From: an uncultured Holophagales bacterium
GTDB lineage: Bacteria; Acidobacteriota; Thermoanaerobaculia; Multivoradales; UBA5704
DNA length: 64,000 nt
NCBI GenBank assembly: GCA_963842525.1
Contig: CAWJGT010000003.1
Span: forward strand, 192,001 to 256,000
Direction of reading: 5' to 3'
Shown here in pieces: positions 38,006 through 60,417 of this stretch. Numbering within the stretch: the first letter of the stretch is position 1; every line of letters starts with the position of its first letter. Below the pieces are notes generated by a model. It was not told where the DNA came from. It was given only the letters and a program-made list of their open reading frames with translations, and ran no database searches. A program made the translations under genes and the position numbers.

Positions 38006-39778
38006 CTACTGCCTCGCCTCCCCCGAGGGTGCCTGGCCAGGGGTGTAGATGCCGGTGACCGCCGAGTCCACATTGCCGAGCTCGTCGCGGACGGCCACGG
38101 CGATGCGGTGCTCCTCGGGACGGAGGAGGAGGGGCATCTTGTAGCCGGCGGTCTGGCCGAGGGCGGTCAGGATCTGGTCGTTCGGGACCCGGATGGGGAT
38201 GGCGATCTCCTGGACCGGCGAGCTGCGGCCCTTGCGGTCCCGCGCGCTCACGAAGACCGAGACCTTTCCTTCATGGTAGGCCCCCTGCGGCAGGAGGACC
38301 AGCTTCGCCAGCGGGAACTTGACCAGCATCTCCACCTGCATCTGCCCCTTCTTGTCCTTCGTCTCGCGCACCAGCTCGAGCTCCACCTCCAGCGGGTTCT
38401 TCCCCGGGTCGAGCAGCAGCGCGGCGAGCGTCCGGTCGGTCATGCGGTCCCGGCTGGTCCGTTCCCGCCGGCCGTCGCGGTGGCGCACCACCAGGTCGCG
38501 GTGGTTGCGCATGCCGACCTCGATCTTCCGGTTCCTGCCGTCCTTCCGGGCCTGCGGGACATAGCCCAGCGAGTAGTAGGAGTCGAAGTCGTCGCGCATA
38601 CGCGCCAGGATCGGGCCCGGGTTGATGGCGTCCACGGAAGACAGGCCGCCGGTGCCGTCGGCCAGCCGCTGCAGCGATGTGGTCAGGTCGAAGGATTCGT
38701 TCCTCTCGAGCTCCACGTTCCAGGCGAACATTCCGCCGGATTCGGCCGAGAGCCCGGCCAGCTCCTCGGTGGCGCCCAGGGTGTAGATGGTGACCCGGTT
38801 GCCGTTGGCGTGCTCGACCATCTGGCCGAAGAACCGGGTCAGGTCGTTCTGGAAGCTGTCGAGCGGCGAGGCGCCGGCCTGCCGGCTGACCTCGGGGAAC
38901 TTGTTCTGGTAGGCCTGGAAGAACGTTTCTCCCGGCCGCTGCGACAGGCCGCCGCCCACGTAGAGGAGGGCCTTGCGGCCGGGCAGGCCGGCCAGGGCAT
39001 CGGTGAAGCGGGTCAGGGCTTCCAGGGTGGCCCGCGTCTCGTTGTAGCGCTGCTGGGCGTAGAGGCGGATCCCCGCGTAGAGGCTCTCGGCGACCTTGAC
39101 GGAAGCATCCGACCCGTTGTCGGCGCCGCCGGACCCCGCGCCGGCGCTCTCGATGTCCAGGAGGAGCCGCCGCTTGTCCATGGCCCGCTCGACGCCGCGC
39201 GGCGCCCCCTTGGCCACCTCGTCGAGGGCCGCGAGCAGCGCTGCCCGGTCGTCCGTGAGCTCCTGCACCAGGTCGACGTTCGAGCCTTCGTAGGTCCCGA
39301 CCAGGGCGAGGTCGCCCGGCCGCAGCCGCGGGATCACTTCCTCGCGCAACGACTTGAGGAGCCGGTTGCGCGCCGGCGCCGTGAGGCTCAGGTTGTCGAA
39401 GAGCAGGGCCAGGTGGAGCCGCTGCTCGTCCTCGATCGGGGCCGGGGGCGCGGCTGGCGCTTGGGTCGGACCGATCGTTCCGATCGGGCCGGTCGGTCCG
39501 GCCACCGCGGGAGCGGCGGCCTCTCTGGCGACGGCGAAGAAGTTGGTGACCTCCACCGGCTTGCCGTTCTCGAGGACCTCGAAGTCGTTCTGGGTCAGGC
39601 CGGTGACGCGGTTCCCCTGCCGGTCGGTGACGAAGACCTCCAGGTTGACAACCTCGACGTCGATCGATTCGTAGAAGGTCTCGGGCCCGGTCGTCTCCGG
39701 CTCCTGGGCGCCGGCGCCGAAGGACACCAGGAAGGGGAAGAGGACGAGAATCAGGAGAGAGAACGGTTTGCACGGCAT
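38006..39778 (-). CDS. Acidobacterial VWA-domain protein
   Basis: Signal peptide, EVVNLEVFVTDRQGNRVTGLTQNDF, LPGRKALLY, LADGTGG and YYSLGY. Confidence 0.88.
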   Translation of the reverse strand: MPCKPFSLLILVLFPFLVSFGAGAQEPETTGPETFYESIDVEVVNLEVFVTDRQGNRVTGLTQNDFEVLENGKPVEVTNFFAVAREAAAPAVAGPTGPIGTIGPTQAPAAPPAPIEDEQRLHLALLFDNLSLTAPARNRLLKSLREEVIPRLRPGDLALVGTYEGSNVDLVQELTDDRAALLAALDEVAKGAPRGVERAMDKRRLLLDIESAGAGSGGADNGSDASVKVAESLYAGIRLYAQQRYNETRATLEALTRFTDALAGLPGRKALLYVGGGLSQRPGETFFQAYQNKFPEVSRQAGASPLDSFQNDLTRFFGQMVEHANGNRVTIYTLGATEELAGLSAESGGMFAWNVELERNESFDLTTSLQRLADGTGGLSSVDAINPGPILARMRDDFDSYYSLGYVPQARKDGRNRKIEVGMRNHRDLVVRHRDGRRERTSRDRMTDRTLAALLLDPGKNPLEVELELVRETKDKKGQMQVEMLVKFPLAKLVLLPQGAYHEGKVSVFVSARDRKGRSSPVQEIAIPIRVPNDQILTALGQTAGYKMPLLLRPEEHRIAVAVRDELGNVDSAVTGIYTPGQAPSGEARQ

Positions 39779-39955
39779 GATCGCGGCTCCCGGGATAAGA
39801 GTCATGGTAGCAGAAGCCCCCGCGGGGCGGCGGCCTGGTTCTGCTATAGTTCGGGCAAGGGTTTGCCAAGGTCGCCATATGCGCCTGCCGGAGCAGGCTG
39901 AGACACTCAGCGCCACCATGACGAGAGGCCTCCGCGGCTGCTCGGAGAGTCCCGG

Positions 39956-43448
<3,493 letters not shown>

Positions 43449-43624
43449 GGCCTCCCTCCAGCGCTCCCGGCCCAACCCTCTGCTATGCTTGTGTCTTCAA
43501 CAGAAGCAGTGTGTCGAGCCGCCTTCCGCAGGCGGGGGCGGACACAACCGGAGGGTGCCGGCAGGAAGAATATGTGCCGGCTGGCCTATCAGACCCGGGG
43601 GACCTCCCCCGCGCGAGGTGAGAC

Positions 43625-44140
43625 ATGGCTTTCAAGCTCAAGGACCTGATGATCAACCTCATTCCGCCGGGCGTCGGCAAGGGCAAGGAGGGCTGCCTGG
43701 AGGCCTCGGCGCCCGGCCAGTTCTGTGGCACTGCCTCGGCGGGCGCCGGGTTCTGCGGCACGGCTTCCGCGGGTGCCGCAGGCTTCTGCGGAACTGCCTC
43801 GGCGGGAGCCGGATTCTGCGGCACAGCCTCGGCGGGCGCGGGGTTCTGCGGTACGGCGTCGGCGGGGGCAGCGTTCTGCGGGACAGCCTCGGCGGGGGTG
43901 CAGTTCTGCGGCACGGCGTCGGCAGGCGCGGCGGCGGATCCGCGGGCTGCCCTGGAGGGCCTGGTCCTGCTCAAGCAGCAGCTCCTCCAGGCGCTGGCGC
44001 AGGTCGAGGAGCAGGAGAATGCGCTGGAGGCCGCTTGCCGCCCGCAGTCGCTGGAGGAGGCCGAGGAGCTCGAACGCCACCTGCGCGACGCTCTCGAGGA
44101 GCTCGAGCAGCACAAGCGGGAGCTCCGAAAGCCGAAATAG
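43625..44140 (+). CDS. Putative RiPP precursor A (leader, 7x FCGTASAG core, helical follower)
   Basis: GAGGTG RBS, MAFKLKDL leader, repeats with synonymous codon variation, and C-terminal GLVLLKQQLLQAL... Confidence 0.85.
   Translation: MAFKLKDLMINLIPPGVGKGKEGCLEASAPGQFCGTASAGAGFCGTASAGAAGFCGTASAGAGFCGTASAGAGFCGTASAGAAFCGTASAGVQFCGTASAGAAADPRAALEGLVLLKQQLLQALAQVEEQENALEAACRPQSLEEAEELERHLRDALEELEQHKRELRKPK
43721..43927 (+). repeat. Coding tandem repeat, 7 units of 30-33 bp encoding FCGTASAG
   Basis: ttctg(t/c)gg(n)ac(n)gc(n)tc(n)gc(n)gg(n), seven times, with third-position variation. Confidence 0.95.
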
Positions 44141-44168
44141 AACGGCCCGGCCTGCCACCATAGATGAG

Positions 44169-47100
44169 TTGACCACCGCCGGTGCTCTCCCTCGCTTCGA
44201 AATCGTCGGCCGCCTCGCGGCCGGGGATTCACCTCTATGCCGGGCGCAGGATCTGGCGAACGGGCGCCCGGCGCTCGTCCAGCTCCTGACGCCCGACCGG
44301 GAGGGCGTCGAAGCGCTGGCGCGTTTCCGGCGCGCGGCTCTCGCGGCCTCTTCGCTGGGCCACCCCCACATCGCTCGTCTCGAAGAGGTCGGCGCGGCCG
44401 GCGGCGATCTGTGCCTCGCCCTGGCACCCGCCGCGGGGGAGCCCGAGACCCTGGAGAGCCGCCTCGCGCACGGTTCCCTGGCCCGGGACGAGGCTGTCGG
44501 GCTGGCCGCGCAGATCGCCGCCGGCCTCGCCGAGGCGCACGCCGCCGGGATCGTCCATGGCGACCTGCAGCCCGACCTCGTTCTCTTGACGCCCGAGGGC
44601 GAAGCCAGGATCACCGCCTTCGGCCTCGGCGAGCTGGCCGACGCCGCGGCGCATCCCGGGGCCGCCGCCCCCTACCGGCCGCCCGAGAGGCTCCTCGGCG
44701 CTCCTCCCGACCCGCGGACCGATGTCTGGGCCCTCGGCATCATTCTCTACCGCATGCTGGCCGGGGTGCTCCCGTTCCGCGGTCTCGACGAGCGGGAGAG
44801 GGCCGAGGCCATGCTCCACCTGCGGCCCGACCCTTTGCCGAACCGTGCCTCCCTGCCCGCGGGGCTCGAGGCGGTCGTCCTGCGCGCCCTGGCGCGGCGG
44901 CCGGACGACCGCTATCCCGATGCCCGGACGATGGAGGCCGACCTGCGTGCGGTGGCAGCCGGCGCGGCGGTCGCTCCGCAGTCCGGCTCACGGCCCGATC
45001 TGCAGCCCGATTTACAGCCGACCTTGCTGGAGATCCCCGTGTCCCGCGCGCCGGAGCAGCGCCTGGTCCGGCAGCGGAGCTCCCCGGATCGCCCGGCGGA
45101 CCCGGCTCTCCACGGCGCGCCGTCCTACCGCCTGCTCGAAAAGATCGGCAGCGGCGGCACGGCCGTCGTCTATCGCGCCGAGGACACCCTGCTCGGCCGG
45201 TCCGTGGCGCTCAAGTTCCTCGCTCCCGAGCTGAGCCGCGATCCCGAGTCCAAGGCGCGCTTCCTGCGCGAGGCGCGGGCCGCCTCGGCGCTCGACCATC
45301 CCAATCTCTGTACGATCCACGAGGTGGGCGAGGACGAGGAGGGGCGGGTCTTCCTCGCCATGCCCTGCTACGAGGGAGAAACCCTGCGCGAGCGGCTCGA
45401 ACGGGGCCCGCTGCCGGTCGATCAGGCGCTCGCCATCGCGATCCAGGCGGGCCAGGGGCTCGCCCGCGCCCATCGCCAAGGCATCGTGCACCGCGACGTC
45501 AAGCCGGCAAACCTCATGCTCACCACGGACGGGGTGGTCAAGGTGCTCGACTTCGGCCTCGCCAAGCTGGACGGCGCCGCGCGCATCACCCGCGGGACCG
45601 CTGCCGGGGGCACCCTGGCCTACATGTCGCCGGAGCAGGCGCGGGGCGAGGAGGTGGACGCACGCTCCGACCTCTGGTCGCTCGGCGTGGTCCTCTATGA
45701 AATGGTGACCGGGAGCAAGCCCTTCTCCGGCGACACGCTGCAGGCGGTGCTCGCGGCGATCCAGCGGGCCGAGCCGGAGCCGGTCTCGCGCCTGCGGCCC
45801 GAGGCTCCGACGGAGCTCGACCGGATCCTCGCCCGCCTGCTGGCCAAGGACCCTGCCGGCCGCTATCCCGACGGGGAGAGCGCCGTCGCCGCCCTGCGGG
45901 CGCTGCGCGGTCCCGAGACGGTCTCGGGGCGCCGGCTCCAGGCGCCCGTGCCGCGGCGGCGGCGCTTGTGGCGGACCGCTATGCAAGCGGGAGCGGTGGC
46001 GGCCTTCGTAACGGCCGCCGGCCTGCTGCTTTGGAGCTTCGGCCCGCGGAAGCAGGGCGGCCCGGTGCTGGCGGCGACCTTCACGCCGCTCACGCATGGA
46101 GAGGGCCGCGAGACGTTCCCCAGCCTGGCGCCCGGAGGCGAGTTCTTCGTCTATGTGGCCCCCGACGGAGGGGATCTGGACATCTTCTGGCAGCGGATGG
46201 GCGGCGACAATCCGCTCAACCTCACCGAGGGCTCGCCCTGGGACGACACCCAGCCCGCCGTCTCGCCGGACGGCCAGCAGATCGCCTTCCGCTCCGAGCG
46301 GGAGGGAGGCGGCCTCTTCCTCATGGGGGCCACGGGCGAGTCCGTCCGCCGTCTCGCCGACGCCTGCTTCAACCCCGCCTGGTCGCCGAATGGCCAGGAG
46401 ATCGCCTGCGCGACCGAGGGGATCGCCCATCCCCGTGGGCGGCTCGCGCGCAGCCGGATCTGGCGCATCGAGGTGGCCACCGGGACGCGGCGGCTCGTGG
46501 ACACAGAGGACGGCGTGCAGCCGAGCTGGTCGCCCCGGGGCCGGCGGATCGCCTTCTGGGGGCTCTCCGGCGATTCGGCGCGGCGGGCACTCTGGACCGT
46601 TGCGGTCGACGATGCGGAGGAGGCGGAGGCCAGGGGCGAGCCGGTCCTGGTCCTCGACGACGGAGCCCTCAACTGGAGCCCGGTCTGGTCGCCCGACGGC
46701 GTCTGGCTCTACTTCGCCAGCGACCGAGGCGGCAGCATGAATCTCTGGCGGGTGGCGATCGACGAGGAATCGGGCCGCGTCCGGGGAGAGCCGGAGGCGG
46801 TGATGGCCCCGAACACCGCGAGCGTCCTGCCCAGCCTGACGCGGGACGGCCGCCGCATCGCTTTTGCCGGCGAGTCGGAGAGGTCGCAGCTCGTGCGGGT
46901 GGCTTTCGACCCGCAGAGCCGGCAGGCGGCCGGACCGCTCCAGCCGGTGAGCCAGTGGACCCGCGCGGTCCGCTCGGGCGACGTCTCGCCGGACGGGCGG
47001 TGGATCGTCTTCGACATCTCTGCGCCGCAGGAGGACCTCTTCCTCGTCCGCGTGGACGGAGGCGGCCTGCGCCAGCTCACCGACGACGCCTGGCGCGACC

Positions 47101-47708
47101 GCATGCCCCGCTGGTCGCCCGACGGGCAACGCATCCTCTTCTACTCCGACCGCGGCGGCAAGTACGAGGCGTGGGCCCTTCACGTGGACGGCGGCGAGGC
47201 CGAGCAGCTCACGCGCATCCCCGGCCGGCAGCTCTTCGATCCGATCTGGTCTCCGGACGGCCGGCGGCTGATCTGCGCGCTGGAGTTCCGCGGTCCGTAT
47301 GTGATCGACCTCGCGGAGGCGGGCTCCGCCGCAAGCGAGCCGCGGCCCCTCCTCCCCCTGGACGAGGCGGACGATTTCGCGGTCAGCTCCTGGTCGGCCG
47401 ACGGCCGGCGCCTGGCCGGCTTCGACCGCGCGTCGCGGATCGTCCTCTTCTCCTTCGCCACCGGCCGCCGCGAGGTGCTGCCGGAGACGGGTGAGGAGGT
47501 GGCCTGGCTGCCGGACGGCCGGTCGCTGGCCTTCCTGCGTGACGGGGAGGTCTGGATGCTGGAGGTCGCGACGCGTCGGACGACCCGGGTGCTGGCGCCG
47601 CCCCGGGGCTCCGCCTTCAAGCGGCTCGGCGTGGCCCCCGACGGCCGGTCGCTCTATCTCGTGCAGGTGAGCGAGCAGGGGGACATCGGATTGCTGACGC
47701 TGCCGTAG
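44169..47708 (+). CDS. Receptor Ser/Thr kinase 2: pseudokinase + kinase + TM + TolB-like beta-propeller
   Basis: TTG start. Domain 1 has [15 protein letters not shown]. Domain 2 has [21 protein letters not shown] and DFG. A TM and PD40 repeats follow. Confidence 0.9.
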
Positions 47709-47762: not shown

Positions 47763-48038
47763 TTGCGCTTCCAGATCCGTGACCTCACGGCCGCTGTCTT
47801 GCCGGCCGACGGCTTGCGCCTGTTTCCCTGCACCTGCCGGGTGTCGGCAGATCCGCCCCCGGAACAGCCCCAGGAAGCGCCAAGACCGCGGCCCCGTCCG
47901 CAGCCGGGTCGCGTTCCGCCCTGCCGGGGCTCCAACGCACCCACCGACGACTGTCCGCACCCCGGGGACGACTCCGAGAGGCAGGCTGGGCTCGCGCTGC
48001 TGAAGCGCCAGCTCCGCGCGGCTCTTGAGGCGCGGTAG
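47763..48038 (+). CDS. Putative RiPP precursor B (91 aa)
   Basis: GGAGGT RBS with a TTG start, MRFQIRDL leader, a core with four Cys (PCTCRVS, PPCRGS, DDC), and follower GLALLKRQLRAAL. Confidence 0.8.
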   Translation: MRFQIRDLTAAVLPADGLRLFPCTCRVSADPPPEQPQEAPRPRPRPQPGRVPPCRGSNAPTDDCPHPGDDSERQAGLALLKRQLRAALEAR

Positions 48039-50820: not shown

Positions 50821-50997
50821 ATGAGCTTCAAGTCGAGAGATCTATCGGTGCAGGTCGGCCCGGACGAGGGTATCGACACACCCTGCTGCCCGTGCCGGAG
50901 CACCGGGGACGAGTGGCTGGGCAGCCCGGGCGGCTCCCAGTTGGACGACCTGCGGCAGCGGCTTCGTGCTGCTGTGCAAGCCGAGTCCCGGCAGTAA
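50821..50997 (+). CDS. Putative RiPP precursor C (58 aa)
   Basis: AAGGAGG RBS with ATG at 50821: MSFKSRDLSVQVGPDEGIDTPCCPCRSTGDEWLGSPGGSQLDDLRQRLRAAVQAESRQ. Confidence 0.82.
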   Translation: MSFKSRDLSVQVGPDEGIDTPCCPCRSTGDEWLGSPGGSQLDDLRQRLRAAVQAESRQ

Positions 50998-51032: not shown

Positions 51033-52232
51033 GTGGATATCCTGACGCGCGACTTCCGGGCAAATCCCCGCTTCGAGCTTGTTTTGTTTGACCGCCTTCC
51101 ACGAGAGGAGCGCCGGGCGCTGGCGGACCTGGCGCGAGAGCCTGGTTTCTATGGCGTGTTGCGGCCCGGTGACGGCAGCAGCGGCAGCGGTCTGGGCCTC
51201 AAGTCGGTGGACCGCGACACGGCGCTCCTCTTCCTCACCCTGCGTGAGCCGGGCCCCCTTCCTTCCTACGTCTGCTCCCAACTGGGCGCGGCGGCCTTGC
51301 GGACCGTCGTCGGCCGGCTGGTCGCCGACGGCGTGCTGGAGGTGGAGAGCGGGGGGGCCTTCCTGTCCGGCGCGGCGGCCTTCGAGCTCCTTGCCGAGGG
51401 CGCGGCGCGGTCCGCGACCTCTGGCGGGAGCGGCCGGCTCGCGGAGCTGTCTCTCGCGGCGCTCCGCTACGGCCAGGCGCTCGCCGTGGACGATCCGCTG
51501 CTCCTCTCCTGGCGCCTCTACTGCTTCCACCGCCGGCCCCTGACCCCGGCCTGGAAGCGGCTCCTGCCCGCGGCCGAGGCGGTCGAGGCGCACCTGGGGA
51601 TTGCGCCTGGGGGAGGGGCCCGCCGGCTTCTCGACCGGAGCTGGTCGCGGACGGCCCCGGTCGAGGGGTGGCTGAGCTGGCGCGCGCGCGCCCGGCGGGC
51701 CGCCGGTCCCGCCGCATCCTCCGCTGCGGAGGGACCCACCTGGAAGCTCTATGTCAGCCCGGTGCCCGAGGCCCTGGCCGCGTCCTTCGGGGAGATTCTG
51801 GAGGCCCTCACCGCGGCGCGTGCCGATCAGTTCAAGGTCGGCGCGGATGCGGCCGGGCTGCTCCGCCCGGACAAGATCGTCGCCTATTTCCCGAGCTTCG
51901 AGCGTCTCGCCGCGGCGGCGGAGACCCTCGCCGGGCGGCTCGCGGGAGCCCCGGCCCACGGCGTTCCCTTCACCTCCGAGATTGGCGGCGGAGGCCTCCT
52001 CTCCTGGGGTGTGGACCCGCCGCGGTCGCAGAGGACCTGGAGCGAGGGGGAGAGCTGGCGGCTCTGGCTGACCCACCGGCTGGCGCGGGCGCTGCTGGCC
52101 GCCCGCGTCCAGTCCGCCGATACAAGCGTTGATCCCGCCGCCGAGCCCTGGCGCTTCGCCCTGGAGCGCGTGCGCCTGGAAGGGGTCGACACCGCGACCT
52201 GGACGCCGGGTGCGCTCCTCTGGAAGGGCTGA
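51033..52232 (+). CDS. HopA1/LanY-like phosphoSer/Thr lyase with an N-terminal RRE-like (winged-helix) domain
   Basis: WKLYVSP...FKV...RPDKIVAYF...GVPFT...SWGVDPP...ESWR resembles HopA1-family and LanL-type lyase motifs. The N-terminus ends in RLVADGVLE. Confidence 0.7.
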   Translation: MDILTRDFRANPRFELVLFDRLPREERRALADLAREPGFYGVLRPGDGSSGSGLGLKSVDRDTALLFLTLREPGPLPSYVCSQLGAAALRTVVGRLVADGVLEVESGGAFLSGAAAFELLAEGAARSATSGGSGRLAELSLAALRYGQALAVDDPLLLSWRLYCFHRRPLTPAWKRLLPAAEAVEAHLGIAPGGGARRLLDRSWSRTAPVEGWLSWRARARRAAGPAASSAAEGPTWKLYVSPVPEALAASFGEILEALTAARADQFKVGADAAGLLRPDKIVAYFPSFERLAAAAETLAGRLAGAPAHGVPFTSEIGGGGLLSWGVDPPRSQRTWSEGESWRLWLTHRLARALLAARVQSADTSVDPAAEPWRFALERVRLEGVDTATWTPGALLWKG

Positions 52233-52238
52233 TCCACG

Positions 52239-54606
52239 ATGGCCATCACCGACCCCCTGGTGCTGTCTCCGGACCTGCTCCTGGTGCCGGTTGTCGACCT
52301 GCCGGAGGAGGTGCGCGCCCGCTTCGAGCATGACGAAGGGGACGTCGCGGTCACCCATCCGCGCTCGCGGACGCCCTCCCGCATCCTCGACGCGCGCTCG
52401 GCCGAGCTGCTGGAGCAGTTCCGTACGCCGCGGACGATCGTCGAGGCGGTGATCCACTTCAGCCGCGCGCGCGAGGCCGACCCCGAATCCACGCTGGAGG
52501 AGGCCTTCCCGCTTCTGCAGCGTCTCCTCGATTCCGGGTTCCTGGTCCCCGAGGGGAGCGACGAGGCGGCGGGCGTCCATCCCGCGCTGGCGCCGGGGGA
52601 GGAGGTCGCCGGGTATGAGGTTTTCGAGTGCGTGCAGGGGCTGGAGGACACCGAGCTCTACCAGGTGCGAAGGCCGGCCGGGCTCGCGGCCCTCAAGATC
52701 GAGCGCCCGGCCGCGGCAGGCCGGCGCGCGGAGCTCTTTGCCCGGGAGGAGGCGATCCTGGCGCACCTCGGTGGGGAAGGGACCCCCCGCCTCCTCGCGG
52801 CCGGAGAGCTCGACGGCCGGCGTTGGATCGTGCTCGAGTGGTGCCTCGGCGTCGACGCCGCAACCGCCGCCCTGGAGCTGCGCCAGCGCGGCGAGGCCGG
52901 CCGGCCCGGGTTGCTGGCGCTCTGCCGGGGGATCGCCGCGGCCTATGCGCGGCTCCACGAGAGGGGGGTGGTCCACGGCGACGTCCACCCGCGCAATGTC
53001 CTGGTGGGACGGGACGGCGCCGTGCGGCTGCTCGACTTCGGGTACTCGCTCTGGGACGGCGGCGCCGCGGAGATCGCCCGGCCCGGGCGCGCGGGCGTGG
53101 CCTTCTTCTACGAGCCCGAGTATGCCGCGGCGGTGCGGGCGGACCGGCCGTACCCGGCAGCCTCCACGGCTGGGGAGCAGCACGCGGTGGCGGCTCTCCT
53201 CTACCTGCTTCTGACCGGTGCCCACTACCGCGACTTCTCCCTCGAACGGCAGGAGATGCAGCGGCAGATCGCCGAAGAGCCGCCTCTCCACTTCGCGGAG
53301 CGCGGCGCGGAGCCCTGGCCGGAGGTGGAGGCGGTCCTGGCGCGCGCCCTGCGCAAGGTGCCCGAGGAGCGGTTCTCTTCCCTGGCCGATCTGGCCTCCG
53401 CGCTCGCGGAGGTGGAGGTCCTGCCCGTCCCTGTCCGGGGTCCGGCGTCCGAAAGCCGCGAGGCCGAAGACCTGCTCGACCGCTTCCTGGAGCGCGCGGG
53501 TGAGGGGGGCTCGCTCTTCGTCGCCGGGCTCCCCAGGGCGCCGACCGCGTCGGTCATGTATGGGGCCGCGGGGGTCGCCTGTGCGGTCTACCGGATCGCG
53601 CTGTCCCGGGAGGACGCGTCTCTCCTCGCCCTGGCTGACATCTGGGCGGAGAGGGCTGCTGCAGCTTCCGGCTCGGAGGATGCCTTCTACAACCCGGAGA
53701 TCGGGATCGACTCCGGGACCGTGGGGGAGAATTCCGTCTACCACACCGCTGCCGGGGTCCACGCGGTCCGCGCCCTGGTCGCCCATGCCCTCGGCGTGTC
53801 CGGCATTCAGGCTGCGGCCGTCCGGGCCTTCCTGGCCGAAGCGCGGCGGCCCTGTCCCCAGATCGACCTCGGCTTCGGCCGTTCGGGCTTCCTCCTGGCC
53901 GGCTCCCTGCTGCGCGACACGCTCCGGCCGGACCCTGCCGGCCCGCGCGCCGAGCTGACCGCCTGGGGCGAGGAGGTCCTGCGCGGCCTGTGGCGCGAGC
54001 TCGACCGGCTGCCTCCGGTGGCGGACCCGCGGCGGCCGGCCGGCCTGGGGGTGGCGCACGGCTGGGCCGGCCACGTCTATGCCGCGCTCCGCTGGTGCCG
54101 CTCGGCGGACACGCCCTTGCCCGCCCGTCTCGAAGAGCGGCTCGCCGGCCTTGCGGAGCAGGCGCGTCCCTGGGGGAGAGGGTTGCGCTGGCGCTGGCCC
54201 GGCGCGCCGGACGGGTCCCTCAGCATGCCCGGCTGGTGCAACGGCAGCGCGGGGTTTCGTCTTCCTCGGCACCCTCGCCGCGGAGATGCTGGGGGAGCCC
54301 CGCTACCGCCAGCTCGCCGAAGGGGCGGCCTGGAACGCCTGGGAGGCATCCGACCGCAACTGGAGCCTCTGCTGCGGCCTGGCCGGCCGCGCCTGGTCCC
54401 TCCTCCATCTCGCGCGGCACGGCGGCGGCCCGGAGTGGCTGGAGCGCGCCCGCCTCCTCGCCAACCGCGCGGCCCGTGAGGTCGCCCGCGGCGTCGAATC
54501 GCCCGACAGCCTCTATAAGGGAGAACCCGGCATCGCCGCCCTGGCCGCCGACCTCGCCCGCCCGGAGGCGGCAGCCATGCCCTTCTTCGAGGAGGAGGGG
54601 TGGTGA
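52239..54606 (+). CDS. RRE-like + Ser/Thr kinase + LanC-like lanthionine cyclase fusion (frameshift near 54255)
   Basis: Kinase motifs ALKIE, HGDVHPRN and DFG; LanC motifs MYGAAG, GVAHGWAG, GWCNGSAG, SLCCGLAG and SLYKGEPG. Confidence 0.85.
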
Positions 54607-54613
54607 CCGAGGG

Positions 54614-55612
54614 CTAAGACGGCGGCCGGGAGCCGGGCGGGGCGACGGCGAGGATCTTCTCGATCTTCTTCGGGTCATCCGGCAGCAGGCCCGAGGCGGG
54701 AAGGCGGGGGACCAGCCGGGCCCAGCGCTCCTCGCGGGCGAAGACGTCGCGGAAGATGGCAAGGGCCTTGTCCTCCTGACCGGCCACAAAGAGCGCTACC
54801 GCCTGCCAGAAGGGGAGCTCGGCGATCTCCGGGGCGAGCTCGCTGGCTTTCGTATAGTGCCGCAGCGCCGCCGGGAAGTCGTTTTTCGCCACCGCCTCAT
54901 CCCCCTGGTTCATCTCCTCGTAGGCGCGGTGCAGCGCAAGCAGCCGCCGCAGCTCCACCAGCGGCTGCGGGTTGTCGTCCACCCGCAGGTCGACCAGCTT
55001 GTCGCGCCACGGCTCGCCGGTCGGCTGGGCGCGGACGATGAGCAGCGCCGCGCTCTGCCGGCCGCGGATGTCGCCGCCCTCGGCCTCGGCGGCGTCCAGC
55101 GCCGCCAGCATGCGGTCGGCGAGGTCCCCCTTGGCGCTCTCGAAGGCGCGGGCCATGGCCGGCCAGACGGTCGGCTTGTCCATCAGGTTCGCCTGCACCG
55201 AGTACGCGGCCCCGGTCTGGTGCCCGGCGGCGTGGATGCACTTGGGGCCGGTCCAGGCCGCGACCCGCCCCTGGCGGTCCACCATGGCGACCTGCCGCAC
55301 GTCCTTCTCGGGGTCTTTGGCGAGCAGGGCGTCCAGCGCCTCCTGCGCCGATTTCCCCTCTTTCATCAGCTTCAGGCCGAGCGGCCCGTAGTCGATGCGG
55401 ACGAACGACTGCGTGGCGACCGCCCCCACGCCCGCCTCGGCCCACGGCACGGTCGGCCCGACCTGGAACCAGTGGCTCTGCACCGCGACGCCGAAGTCGC
55501 CCGTCGCCGGGTCGCGGGCCACGATCGAGTAGGTGTGCGCCAGGGGATCACGCGCCAGCAGGGGGAGCGGCAGGAAGGCGGCGGCCAGACAGAGGACGGT
55601 GAGACGCGTCAT
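54614..55612 (-). CDS. DUF1028 (Ntn-hydrolase-like) secreted protein with a C-terminal TPR
   Basis: Signal peptide then TYSIVARDPATGDFGVAVQS, GAVATQS, GGDIRGRQSAAL and DLRVDD. Confidence 0.88.
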   Translation of the reverse strand: MTRLTVLCLAAAFLPLPLLARDPLAHTYSIVARDPATGDFGVAVQSHWFQVGPTVPWAEAGVGAVATQSFVRIDYGPLGLKLMKEGKSAQEALDALLAKDPEKDVRQVAMVDRQGRVAAWTGPKCIHAAGHQTGAAYSVQANLMDKPTVWPAMARAFESAKGDLADRMLAALDAAEAEGGDIRGRQSAALLIVRAQPTGEPWRDKLVDLRVDDNPQPLVELRRLLALHRAYEEMNQGDEAVAKNDFPAALRHYTKASELAPEIAELPFWQAVALFVAGQEDKALAIFRDVFAREERWARLVPRLPASGLLPDDPKKIEKILAVAPPGSRPPS

Positions 55613-55767
55613 CGGGACCTCCTGTTGGACTGCCGGGGAGCGTCGCAGAAAACCCGCCCCGAGGCAATGTACGCAAAAAGCCCTTCCCTCAGCCTCCCGG
55701 GTGACATATCATGCTTGGACTCCGGAACAAGTTGTTGACGGTTCCGTCAAGAAACGCCAACGTACCC

Positions 55768-57506
55768 ATGCAGAGTCTTGCCGACAGAGCGCTCTTTCCG
55801 GCGGTCCGGACGGGCGCGAGCAGGACGCTCCGGGGAGGAGCCTTCCTGGTGCCTCTCGCGCTGGGCGGGGCCTGCACGGCCGCGACGCTGCTGCTCTGGC
55901 GGGAGCTGGGCGCGGAACGGACCGCCTCGGGGCTGAGCTCGCCGTTCCCGGAGTCGGTGCTGGTCTCGGGGCTCCTCGTCTCCTGGCTGCTGGCCCTCTC
56001 GGTCTGGCTGCTGCAGCTCGCCCGTGCCCAGACCCGGGCCGAAGAGGTGGCCCGGCGGGAGCTCGAAGCGCAGATCGCCGAGCGCACCCAGGCCGAGAAG
56101 CGCTACCGGACGCTCTTCGAGCGCAACCCGGCCGGGATGTACCGCAGCACGGTCGAGGGACGGATGCTCGACTGCAACGACGCCTTCGTGCGCATGTTCG
56201 GCTACCCGGACCGCGAGACCCTCCTCGGCCTGCCCGTCTCGGCGCTCTACCATGACCCGGCGGACCGCGCCCGTCTTCTCGACCACTTTTTCCAGGGGGA
56301 GTCGCCGCAGAACGTCGAGGTGCAGCTCCGGCGTTACGACGGCGAGCCGTTCTGGGGGCTGCTGTGCGGTCCGGGCGGCGCGGTCCGGCCGTACCAGGAC
56401 CTCGACGGCGTCGCCGTGATCGAGGGGGCGATCCTCGACATCACCGACCGGAAACGGGCGGAGGAGGCGCTGCGCGAGCGTGAGCACGACCTCGTCCTGC
56501 TCGGCGAGCTCGGGGGGCTGCTCCAGACCTGCGACTCGGTCCAGGAGTCCTACGTCGTCATGTCGCGCCAGGGGAGGAAGCTCTTCCCCCACCTGCACGG
56601 GGCCGTCTACCTGATCAGCCCGTCGCGGACCGATCTCGACCTGGTGGCCTCCTGGGGGGATGCACCGTCCCTGCCCGGCGAAGGCCTCTTCCGTCCGGAG
56701 GACTGCTGGGGCCTCCGCCTGGGGCGGGAACACCTGGTGAGCGATCCGTCGCGGGACCTGGTCTGCCGCCACCTCGGGGCCACGCCGCCTGTCTCCTCCC
56801 TGTGCCTGCCGCTGGTCGCCCTCGGCGAGACCCTGGGCGTGCTCGTGCTGCGGACCGGGGAGCGGCCCGGCGCCGCCGAGGGCCTCGGCCGCGCGCGCTG
56901 CCAGCTCGCCGCCGCGGTGTCCGAGCAGCTCGCCATGGCCGTCGCCAACCTGCGGCTGCGCGAGACCCTGCGCCACCAGTCGATCCGCGACGCCCTGACA
57001 GGGCTGTACAACCGGCGCTTCTTCCAGGACTCCCTCGATCGGGAGCTCCGGCGGGTGCGGCGGCGGGGGGCCACCCTCGGGCTCCTGATGATCGACGTCG
57101 ACGACTTCAAGGTCTACAACGACACCTACGGCCACGAGGCCGGCGACCTCCTCCTGCGCCTGCTGGGCGATCTGCTGCGGCGGCGGGTGCGCAGCGAGGA
57201 CATCGCCTGCCGCTACGGCGGCGAGGAGTTTGCCCTGATCCTGCCCGAGGCTTCGCTGGAGACCACCCGGATGCGGGCCGAGGAGCTGCGCGAGGAGGTC
57301 AAGCGGCTCCGTCCCGTCTACCAGGACGGCCCGCTGGGCGGCATCACCGTGTCGATCGGGGTGTCCGCCTACCCGGAGCACGGGCCCCTGGGCGACGACA
57401 TCGTGCGCGCGGCCGATACGGCGCTCTACCACTCCAAGGCCTATGGCAGGGACTGCGTCTCGCTGGCAACCGTCTCCCCGCCCGACCGCCGCCTCATGAT
57501 CCCCGA

Positions 57507-57510
<4 letters not shown>
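55768..57510 (+). CDS. Membrane PAS-GAF-GGDEF diguanylate cyclase
   Basis: Two TMs, a PAS domain, a GAF domain (CWGLRLG), DALTGLYNRR, I-site RSED and YGGEEF. Confidence 0.92.
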
Positions 57511-58994
<1,484 letters not shown>

Positions 58995-59028
58995 GATCTC
59001 AATCCGGTATGATTTCTGGCGGAGCTCC

Positions 59029-59634
59029 ATGTTCCTCCAGGACATAAGAAACGGCCGCGGCGACACCCCCAAGCTCGACGAGGAGCTCCAGCGCCTCTTC
59101 GACCGGTACTTCCGTTCCATCGTCCATTTCTTCCTGAACCGGGGTCTCGCGCGGGAAGAGGCGCTCGATCTCACCCAGGAGACGTTTCTTCGGGTCTATA
59201 GAAGCCTGCAGGGGTTCCGCGGGGAGGCCGGCGTCCAGACCTGGCTCTTCCGGATCGCGACGAACCTCTGGAACAATGAGGTGCGCCGGCGGAAGGCCGA
59301 GAAGCGGGAGGGATGGGAGGTCTCGCTCGAAGGTGTGGTCGAGGGAGGGCATCCCGTCCGGGCGGACCGCCACTTCGACGGCTGGTCGGAGCCTGCCGGT
59401 CCGCTCGATTCGATGCTGGACGACGAGCGGCGGCAGATGTTGCGCGAGTCCCTGGACGAGCTTCCCCCGCAGATGCGGCGCTGCGTCCTGCTGCGCATCG
59501 ACCAGAACCTGAAGTACCGCGAGATCGCCGGCGTGATGCAGGTCTCGATCGAGACGGTGAAGTCCCAGCTCTCCCAGGCCCGGGACCGGCTGGAGCGGAA
59601 GCTGGGCAGTTATTTCGATCCTGTGGACGTCTGA
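59029..59634 (+). CDS. ECF sigma-70 factor
   Basis: ALDLTQETFLRVY, TWLFRIATN and LKYREIAGVMQVSIETVKSQL. Confidence 0.92.
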   Translation: MFLQDIRNGRGDTPKLDEELQRLFDRYFRSIVHFFLNRGLAREEALDLTQETFLRVYRSLQGFRGEAGVQTWLFRIATNLWNNEVRRRKAEKREGWEVSLEGVVEGGHPVRADRHFDGWSEPAGPLDSMLDDERRQMLRESLDELPPQMRRCVLLRIDQNLKYREIAGVMQVSIETVKSQLSQARDRLERKLGSYFDPVDV

Positions 59635-59649
59635 AGTGACCGAGGTGTT

Positions 59650-60417
59650 GTGGTGGACAACGAGAAGGACCTGAAGATCGGCGTCCGCGCCCTGGCGGCG
59701 GAGGCGCGGCGCAGCCTGGAGCACCCTCTCCCTGAGGAGCTGCTCGACTACCAGGCGGGCGACCTGCGGGAGGCGGAGAGGGAGCGCATCCAGGAGCACC
59801 TGGCCCTCTGCCCGGGCTGCGTGCGGGCGCTGCTGGATCTCGAAGCCTTTCCCGATGTCGAGCCCGTCCGGCCCGAGGACCGGCTTACCGACGCCGAGCT
59901 GTCCCACGAGTGGCAGCGGTTCCGGCAGGCCGTGGCGCCGCTTCCCGCCGCGGAGAGGCCCCGCGTCTCGCATCCCGTTCTCGCTCTCGCGGCGGTCCTG
60001 CTGCTCGCGGTCGTGGGCCTCTCCTTCTGGGTCCTGCGATTGCGGGGCGAGGTGCGCGATCTGTCCGCCCCTCAGGCCGGCATCCTGGTCGCCGATCTGG
60101 TTCCGCGGGATGAGGCGGTCGAGCGGGCAGAGGGCGATGGAGAGGTGGTCCGCGTGCCGGGTTGGGCGGACCGCGTCGTCCTGATCCTCAACCTGGCCGA
60201 TCCCGTGACCCATCCCGCGTACCGGGTGGAGATCGCGCAGGACGGCCGGGAGGTCTGGCGCCGCGCGGGGATCCGGCGTAGCGCGGACGGCACCTTCGCT
60301 CTGGAGGTTCCACGGCGGCTCCTGCCCGCGGGCCGGTACCGCATCCGGCTCTTCGGGATCGAGGGCGGCGCCGAGCTGCCGGTGGCGGAGTACCGGGTCC
60401 GGATCGAGCCCGTGTAG
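59650..60417 (+). CDS. zf-HC2 anti-sigma factor
   Basis: EHLALCPGC, TM LAAVLLLAVVGLSFWVL, and a C-terminal domain similar to that of 746..1573. Confidence 0.85.
   Translation: MVDNEKDLKIGVRALAAEARRSLEHPLPEELLDYQAGDLREAERERIQEHLALCPGCVRALLDLEAFPDVEPVRPEDRLTDAELSHEWQRFRQAVAPLPAAERPRVSHPVLALAAVLLLAVVGLSFWVLRLRGEVRDLSAPQAGILVADLVPRDEAVERAEGDGEVVRVPGWADRVVLILNLADPVTHPAYRVEIAQDGREVWRRAGIRRSADGTFALEVPRRLLPAGRYRIRLFGIEGGAELPVAEYRVRIEPV

Follow-up and report, generated by a model that had tools for sequence, protein, structure and literature searches.

What becomes of a small protein that carries the octapeptide FCGTASAG seven times in a row, and which enzymes act on it? A locus of an uncultured Holophagales bacterium raises this question (NCBI GenBank assembly GCA_963842525.1, contig CAWJGT010000003.1, positions 192,001 to 256,000; the whole stretch of 64,000 nucleotides that was analyzed is called the window). 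The protein, termed precursor A, is encoded in the same locus as a stand-alone lyase and a fused kinase-cyclase. We consider precursor A to be the substrate of this enzyme cassette, from which it would gain thioether rings, and give this predicted role a probability of roughly 0.7. New here are the eight-unit precursor, a family-wide C-x-x-x-S/T rule, the threefold interleaving with receptor-like kinases, and two frameshifts in the locus. The parts of precursor A are the following.

43625..44140, + strand: precursor A, 171 amino acids, with an N-terminal leader motif, an eight-unit core and a C-terminal helical region (from the open reading frame, its translation and 47 homologs)
43625..43666, + strand: leader motif MAFKLKDLMINLIP, in which M1, F3, D7, L8 and I10 are invariant across 32 aligned members
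43694..43927, + strand: core with one C-L-E-A-S and seven F-C-G-T-A-S-A-G units, i.e., eight C-x-x-x-S units with a period of 10-11 residues
43937..44137, + strand: C-terminal region of about 65 amino acids, rich in L, E, A, Q and K, probably two helices meeting at the invariant P140

In the translation of 43625-44140, seven exact FCGTASAG octamers start at residues 33, 43, 54, 64, 74, 84, and 94 and are separated by AG, AAG, AG, AG, AA, and VQ, in this order, which bears out an earlier note on this DNA that had described seven exact copies with spacers of 2-3 residues. Tandem Repeats Finder detected the array at 43702-43929 with a period of 30 nt, 7.5 copies and 76% matches. The DNA of every unit differs from that of all others (mean nucleotide identity 0.84); the mean third-position divergence is 0.476, and all 80 pairwise differences fall on codon position 3. 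As identical peptides can differ only synonymously, the test for selection was made on the whole array of seven units with none excluded. At least 13 substitutions separate the units and 13 of 13 are synonymous (P ~6e-8 under a uniform mutation model, synonymous changes making up 20 of 72 single-base neighbours), which confirmed the protein-level selection claimed in the earlier note. Near-identical DNA would be expected after recent slippage or a duplication made during assembly. The array is preceded by GCLEASAPGQ. Its CLEASA had been called a degenerate unit; it is present before the array, but it obeys the C-x-x-x-S rule described below and is hence an eighth unit rather than a decayed one, so that the core of precursor A counts eight units.

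A word-indexed search returned 47 relatives of precursor A with lengths of 115-222 amino acids, none of which has a Pfam domain or an informative name, and a scan of one genome per species yielded 31 loci with a family precursor. The metagenome-assembled genomes carrying them are labelled Holophagales, Thermoanaerobaculia, Acidobacteriaceae, Bryobacterales, Acidoferrales, Planctomycetota (including Fuerstiella), and Eremiobacterota. The combined family comprises 78 distinct proteins, and all of them are composed of an F-x-L-x-D-L N-terminus of the MAFKLKDLMI type, a hypervariable core of Cys, Ser, and Thr residues, and a conserved C-terminal region of about 65 amino acids. The cores are rich in Ala, Pro, Gly, Thr, Cys, and Ser (C 8.3%, T 10.1%, S 6.8%) and contain a median of 7 Cys residues, with a range of 2 to 32.

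The distances between Cys and hydroxyl residues were counted in 59 non-redundant cores with 458 Cys residues and compared with shuffled cores. A Ser or Thr stands four residues downstream of Cys (Cys+4) in 299 of 458 cases compared to about 76 in the shuffled cores, a z-score of 28.8 that is inflated by repeats within proteins and by related sequences, though the effect is large. A weaker excess was observed at Cys+2 (124 compared to 78, z 5.9), and upstream of Cys the z-score reached 3.3 at most at any offset. In precursor A, all nine Cys residues fit the Cys+4 rule. From unit to unit, the distance varies between 8 and 41 residues in the relatives, which indicates that conservation lies in the unit rather than in what joins one unit to the next. 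Amplification of units in tandem recurs with unrelated sequences, such as CPTASA, CGPATRTEPA, DCADLQTH, TATPV, ECART, CAWTA, and others, and 36 of the 78 family members contain some 5-mer at least three times. Repeated units of other loci show third-position divergence among identical peptides as well, positions 1 and 2 being uninformative in this comparison by selection. A comparison of repeat counts across homologs, proposed in the earlier note, showed that the nearest relatives (78-86% identity to precursor A) have six or seven CGTASA or CGTPSA units. Within the family, precursor A illustrates most clearly how a single unit has been amplified in nature under selection.

The extremely Cys-rich cores of L017 (9779-10501) and L019 (9686-10405) were observed apart from this. 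They contain up to 32 Cys residues with many C-x-x-C and C-[ST]-x-C motifs and lack spaced C-x-x-x-S/T units; they may represent a chemically different branch.

The C-terminal region is rich in Leu, Glu, Ala, Gln, and Lys throughout the family and has an invariant Pro between two probable helices; the residues invariant in the alignment are L113, L116, L120, L124, P140, L149, A156, E159, and L167. For precursor A, the composition and the heptad-like spacing of the invariant Leu residues suggest a helical fold. A second C-terminal helix had been proposed earlier: its sequence PQSLEEAEELERHLRDALEEL is present, and its helicity is read from composition and Leu spacing. The designation of this end as a follower holds insofar as the region exists, but no other part of the family is as well conserved, and it probably serves as a second recognition handle or forms a part of the product instead of being just a follower. 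No Pfam family matches the C-terminal region of precursor A, and a search of a protein atlas with this domain gave no usable neighbour. A sigma-70 match of precursor A in NCBIfam (E 0.004, 16.8 bits compared to a cut-off of 42.9) was rejected as noise caused by helical composition.

The candidate enzymes are encoded on the same strand, downstream of precursor A.

51033..52232, + strand: putative phospho-Ser/Thr lyase, 399 amino acids, with a RiPP recognition element (RRE)-like domain at about residues 1-110 and a LanY/HopA1/OspF-fold domain at about 125-395 (RiPP, a peptide made by the ribosome and modified post-translationally)
52239..54257, + strand: putative RRE-protein kinase-LanC-like cyclase, of which residues 1 to about 673, as far as GWCNGSAGF, are in frame (from Pfam, NCBIfam and the RRE fold)
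54253..54606, + strand: remainder of the cyclase in another frame, with the LCCG zinc motif (from tblastn with the intact orthologs of L027 and L023)

When the window neighbours were searched by tblastn against the 31 loci, a homolog of the lyase was found in 24 and one of the kinase-cyclase in 23. The lyase gene starts within 700 nt of the precursor stop codon in 23 of the 24 loci and within 265 nt in 22. Seven loci lack a lyase: the sequences of L008 and L018 stop at the precursor gene or inside it, and that of L001 breaks off beyond a kinase gene and a short paralog; the other four are considered below. Blind clustering of 483 open reading frames (ORFs) from the 31 loci gave four groups recurring in at least 12 loci, namely the precursor, the lyase, the kinase-cyclase, and a Ser/Thr kinase (STK) with PD40 repeats, termed STK-PD40. 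Minor clusters, occurring in at most five loci each, comprised TIR, TPR/FecR, patatin, MacB/FtsX, outer-membrane barrel, sigma-54 activator, and VWA proteins, and no conserved protease or exporter was found beside the cassette by this clustering among the 31 loci. The genome of the window (9.95 Mb) contains exactly one lyase gene and exactly one full-length family precursor, precursor A, which was its sole family member found in the full-length search and lies 7 kb upstream of the lyase. As this genome has one such precursor and one lyase, the cassette is the only candidate partner of precursor A, and precursor A that of the cassette.

The 399-amino-acid lyase sequence has no match in Pfam (HopA1 included), NCBIfam, or the PDB sequences. 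Against the sequences of solved structures, the single sequence gave 0 matches and a 20-sequence profile two rows at chance level (E 0.22 and 0.34). An AlphaFold2 model based on a 20-sequence alignment had a mean pLDDT (predicted local distance difference test) of 86.6, and the top Foldseek matches of the protein were the second chain of the LxmKY complex (E 8.7e-6), HopA1 effectors, the lyase domains of CuvL, SalKC, and ThurKC, and OspF. In VIA-align, residues ~125-395 matched LxmY (9dk1_B) with Z 14.2 and a root-mean-square deviation of 3.7 over 222 aligned residues, HopA1 with Z 13.7, the CuvL lyase domain with 13.2, ThurKC with 11.7, SalKC with 11.0, and the phosphothreonine lyase 2q8y with 8.2, unrelated rows scoring about 7. 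Judged by this model, the protein is a phospho-Ser/Thr lyase of the LanY/HopA1 fold. HopA1-like LanY proteins are described as the phospho-Ser/Thr lyases of class V lanthipeptides (PMC9486802). Among 1.84 billion cluster representatives, the lyase family accounts for 1,589 representatives (50% identity level) at E ≤ 0.001 and for 1,115 at E ≤ 1e-30. The best 150 of the 1,589 relatives are all stand-alone proteins of 323-474 amino acids, and in the source annotation the family members are named 'hypothetical protein'. The lyase gene is rare and patchily distributed, being present in seven of 301 sampled genomes of the phylum, the window's own included, and in six of 275 high-quality ones.

In the kinase-cyclase, Pfam recognized Pkinase (E 4.7e-11) and LANC_like (E 1.6e-5) domains, and the best NCBIfam models were LanL (NF038150; 93.1 bits compared to a cut-off of 650) and LanKC (53 bits compared to 575). 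The orthologs are about 800 amino acids long and conserve the DFG motif and the kinase catalytic loop H.D.HPRN (HGDVHPRN in the window). The cyclase motifs G.AHGW, GWCNG.AG, and LCCG are at least 90% conserved in the aligned orthologs longer than 700 amino acids, and the third zinc ligand is Cys (CCG) where most LanC domains have His. The CCG motif has been described as a mark of promiscuous ProcM-like cyclases (PMC8524650), which fits a system that faces hypervariable cores. Several full-length precursors with unrelated cores accompany one enzyme pair in other loci, three in L009 (1226-1759, 9506-9901, and 10001-10570) and two each in L024 (10001-10393 and 10431-10811) and L027 (9728-10171 and 10337-10903), which also fits a promiscuous enzyme set. 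A model of the first 110 residues, based on a 20-sequence alignment (pLDDT 81.5), has three strands followed by three helices, the order of an RRE. Its Foldseek neighbours were TigE, PqqD, TbiB1 with leader, LynD/TruD, MccB, ThcOx, MibB, and TglHI, with TMq values of 0.5-0.6 and E values from 1.2e-3 upward, so that the case rests on the consistency of this list. According to the model, the protein reads RRE-kinase-cyclase, and the RRE occupies the place that the lyase domain has in LanL and LanKC.

A one-base frameshift near 54253-54257, at a G4/T3 run, puts the last 120 residues of the window's kinase-cyclase into another frame. Upstream of precursor A, a frameshift in a G run near 40680-40700 divides the kinase gene STK1, as seen by comparison with the intact orthologs of L001 and L006 (1140 and 1187 amino acids). 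As two extra-base homopolymer shifts lie within 14 kb, both are likelier to be homopolymer assembly errors than signs of decay of the kinase-cyclase gene.

Precursor A is embedded in a series of kinase genes and short paralogs, the order in the window being STK1, A, STK2, B, STK3, C, lyase, and kinase-cyclase.

39956..43448, + strand: STK1, with a pseudokinase domain, a Ser/Thr kinase domain and a PD40 beta-propeller (Pfam); frameshift-split
44169..47708, + strand: STK2, 1179 amino acids, with two kinase domains and a PD40 beta-propeller (Pfam); directly 3' of precursor A
47763..48038, + strand: precursor B, 91 amino acids, starting with MRFQIRDL, with a CTCxxSA core and an LLKRQLRAAL helix but no second helix; syntenic in L002 and L001
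48084..50693, + strand: STK3, 869 amino acids, with a Ser/Thr kinase domain and a PD40 beta-propeller (Pfam); between precursors B and C
50821..50997, + strand: precursor C, 58 amino acids, starting with MSFKSRDL, with a CCPCRST core; directly upstream of the lyase gene; syntenic in L002

Precursors B and C have an F-x-x-x-D-L start and the first helix in common with the family and lack the second helix. Their syntenic counterparts in L002 and L001 indicate that they are real genes, and the CTCxxSA core is conserved in the counterparts of type B. In every STK, a kinase domain that looks active is combined with PD40 beta-propeller repeats (Pfam, NCBIfam), and the sequence of each may be read as a cytoplasmic kinase, a membrane segment, and an outer propeller. 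The genome contains about 52 kinase-domain matches to STK3, four of them full-length, and three of these four are STK1, STK2, and STK3. STK-PD40 genes adjoin precursors in 13 of the 31 loci, all of them acidobacterial, either on the strand of the precursor or opposite to it, and in five of five Acidobacteriaceae genomes the kinase gene adjacent to the cassette ranks first or second among 5-27 matches to STK3. The link between STK-PD40 genes and precursors thus looks real. No family precursor lies beside the fourth full-length STK-PD40 paralog of the genome, on contig C13 (L034, 5105-7975, + strand). A convergent ORF of 78 amino acids was observed there (L034, 7950-8186, - strand; G000:C13). 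With a start that resembles a leader and is rich in Lys (…LRLNRETIRLL…) and a tail rich in Cys and Thr, it looks like a RiPP precursor of a different kind.

Sequence features, family comparison, gene linkage, folds, and catalytic motifs lead us to infer a pathway whose chemical steps, ring direction, and possible later cutting are all predictions. The N-terminal F-x-L-x-D-L leader would dock on an RRE domain, and the conserved C-terminal helical region may dock on a second RRE-like domain. The protein-kinase domain would then phosphorylate Ser and Thr residues of the core, the stand-alone LanY/HopA1-fold lyase would eliminate the phosphate to give dehydroalanine or dehydrobutyrine, and the zinc LanC domain with its three-Cys CCG site would add Cys thiols to form thioether rings. 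In the most economical and most likely reading of the Cys+4 rule, each unit would close one small ring between Cys(i) and residue i+4, which would result in eight rings along precursor A, the Thr at i+2 being either left as Thr or dehydrated. The leader of the family resembles the FxLD leader motif that is reported to be bound by class I RREs (PMC12710340). A complex prediction with the RRE domain, the lyase, and the precursor, run without controls, gave a median score of 0.19 compared to a mark of 0.32.

Several observations weigh against this pathway or against parts of it. A ring in which the Cys lies N-terminal to the dehydro residue has the less common direction among known lanthipeptides, and the z-score that speaks for this spacing carries the inflation mentioned above. 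In loci L004, L006, L026, and L030, the flank downstream of the precursor extends over at least 2.8 kb and contains no lyase gene. In the window, two large kinase genes and two short paralogs separate precursor A from the enzymes, the short precursor C and not precursor A occupies the canonical site beside the lyase gene, and the sequences of precursors B and C are mostly off the Cys+4 spacing. The assignment of an RRE to the N-terminus of the lyase model is suggestive, as it rests on Z values of 6.1-7.0 (MibB, TigE, and TbtB) in the middling range. If the frameshift in the kinase-cyclase gene is real, the window copy of this enzyme lacks the region of the third zinc ligand.

The thioether precursor claimed in the earlier note is supported by the gene context, but its two alternatives, a multi-core precursor or one polycyclic peptide, are not separable by computation. 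In the multi-core case, the same enzymes would act and a protease encoded elsewhere would then cut out seven or eight identical ring peptides of 8-11 residues, raising the yield as in cyanobactins or multi-core microviridins. The seven identical units under strong selection are what such a precursor would have, as are the change between six and seven repeats among the closest relatives and the independent amplification of different units in several lineages, and unclustered lanthipeptide proteases are reported to exist (PMC8960859). The spacers of precursor A, however, have merely 2-3 residues (AG, AAG, AA, VQ) and no conserved recognition or cleavage motif; together with the lack of a conserved protease or exporter in the 31 loci, this leans against a cyanobactin-style multi-core precursor. 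Moreover, in other members the units differ within one protein and are spaced by 8 to 41 residues, and a C-terminal domain of 65 amino acids is conserved beyond the need of a disposable follower. We therefore regard excision of the units as rather unlikely. Given small rings within the units of precursor A, the release of single units is somewhat less likely than a polycyclic product that stays whole. Another arrangement of rings would arise if the dehydrated Ser or Thr of one unit were attacked by the Cys of the next, which would interlink rings of 7 residues into a chain or, with the Thr used as well, form double rings like those of labionin. The N-to-C direction of such rings is the norm for known rings of classes I-IV, and two hydroxyl residues and one Cys per unit correspond to the stoichiometry of labionin. 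In precursor A, the distance from Ser to the next Cys is indeed regular (6-7 residues), but in the family the distance from Ser/Thr to the next Cys is not conserved (upstream z 3.3 at most compared to 28.8) and the unit periods range from 8 to 41. The cyclase also keeps its zinc-ligand Cys, in contrast to the labionin-forming class III enzymes, which are described as lacking them (PMC7268733). Because the spacing Cys-(3 residues)-Ser/Thr is conserved and the spacing from Ser/Thr to the next Cys is not, rings within the units are favoured; if precursor A carries thioether rings at all, we consider them about twice as likely as forward rings between units, and the latter arrangement is in itself unlikely.

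It is also conceivable that precursor A is no RiPP precursor but a protein of signalling or regulation that is a partner of the STK-propellers or their substrate, whose Cys units bind a metal or sense redox state and whose coiled-coil end serves for oligomerisation. The adjacency of STK-PD40 genes in 13 of 31 loci and the interleaving of three of the four full-length paralogs with the three precursors fit this explanation, as do loci L004 and L006, which combine a precursor with an STK-PD40 gene and have no enzymes in the flank. There is also no signal peptide, exporter, or protease, and 171 amino acids are long for a RiPP precursor. Yet the tightest and widest linkage is that to the lyase and the kinase-cyclase (24 of 31 loci, three phyla), whereas the linkage to STK-PD40 genes is confined to acidobacterial loci. 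As the kinase-cyclase has a peptide-recognition fold and the lyase a candidate one, and a hypervariable core between conserved handles is the pattern of a RiPP, we consider a purely signalling function very improbable. The STK genes could nevertheless be combined with the preferred pathway: the product might be a lanthionine protein like beads on a string, with eight reverse mini-rings, in which the coiled-coil C-terminal domain is kept, and each precursor might be paired with a membrane Ser/Thr kinase that senses it by its periplasmic beta-propeller. This detailed picture is quite unlikely to hold as a whole; if true, it would describe a RiPP signal with a Hanks-kinase receptor module, present three times in the locus.

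Lanthipeptide synthetase classes are sorted by the build of their dehydration and cyclisation parts. The cassette would work like a lanthipeptide pathway, yet fails defining features of classes III, IV, and V. It resembles the class IV LanL enzymes (VenL, SgbL, CuvL; NF038150) in the fusion of a Hanks-type Ser/Thr kinase to a zinc-type LanC cyclase and in the predicted elimination of phosphate by a lyase of the OspF superfamily, and LanL is the best NCBIfam model. In contrast to LanL, the lyase of the cassette is a separate protein of 399 amino acids with its own N-terminal domain, an RRE replaces the fused lyase domain, the zinc motif is CCG instead of CHG, the LanL model gives 93 bits where its cut-off is 650, and the precursors have a conserved C-terminal domain. 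Class III LanKC enzymes differ from the cassette, whose cyclase has the zinc-ligand Cys, whose lyase is separate, and whose kinase-cyclase reaches 53 bits compared to 575; the cyclase domain of LanKC is described as devoid of the zinc-ligand residues (PMC7268733). With class V, i.e., LanK/LanY pairs such as LxmKY of lexapeptide and CaoK/CaoY of cacaoidin, the cassette shares a stand-alone HopA1-like lyase, recognized here by fold only. The kinase of the cassette, unlike that of class V, is of the Pkinase type and fused to LanC in one protein. Class V kinases are described as being of the aminoglycoside-phosphotransferase type and as occurring with no LanC cyclase (PMC9486802, PMC11186320).

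ProcM and the prochlorosins have the CCG zinc motif in common with the cassette, as well as one enzyme set serving hypervariable cores on conserved recognition regions (PMC8524650). ProcM itself is a LanM with a lipid-kinase-like dehydratase and has neither a separate lyase nor a protein kinase. Prochlorosin precursors have a long N-terminal leader of the Nif11 type and not two-ended handles. In multi-core RiPPs, conserved sequences for recognition or cleavage flank the cores, which are processed by dedicated proteases; neither flanking motifs nor a conserved protease were found in the 31 cassette loci. Multi-core precursors of the cyanobactin PatE type and multi-core microviridins nevertheless resemble precursor A in having tandem core units in one protein (PMC5934393). 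The name 'class VI' lanthipeptides was set aside for the cassette, as it denotes streptococcal LanKCb enzymes (PMC12328550), which are different. In the full-text literature, with subscription journals and supplements outside the search, we found no account of a LanY-type stand-alone lyase with an RRE-kinase-LanC fusion or of these precursors.

The cassette would thus join a lyase in the style of class V to a kinase and zinc cyclase in the style of class IV and add a docking domain to each enzyme and precursors with two recognition ends, which suggests a new branch of lanthipeptide-type natural products. As the lyase family has no Pfam or NCBIfam model, standard genome-mining tools probably miss it. 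Precursor A should be a good substrate for the study of ring patterns, offering eight identical reactions in one chain, and the C-x-x-x-S/T rule predicts a ring direction that is uncommon. A role in signalling is hinted at by the association with receptor-like kinases.

Around precursor A, a scan of 43300-44400 for promoters and terminators gave 0 sites, the 176-nt spacer upstream of the gene had an RNA fold z-score of -1.35, and the G+C content at third codon positions of the gene was 0.86. Downstream of the cassette, the following neighbours were identified by Pfam, none of which is conserved with the cassette in the other loci according to tblastn.

54614-55612, - strand: DUF1028-TPR protein
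55711-57510, + strand: PAS-GAF-GGDEF diguanylate cyclase
58975-60417, + strand: extracytoplasmic function (ECF) sigma factor with a zf-HC2 anti-sigma factor

Upstream of STK1, a large protein that looks secreted is encoded at 38006-39835 (- strand). It gave no Pfam match at E values up to 0.001; a separate ORF of L004 has VWA domains. The protein is kept in L001, L004, and L006 with 41-59% identity.

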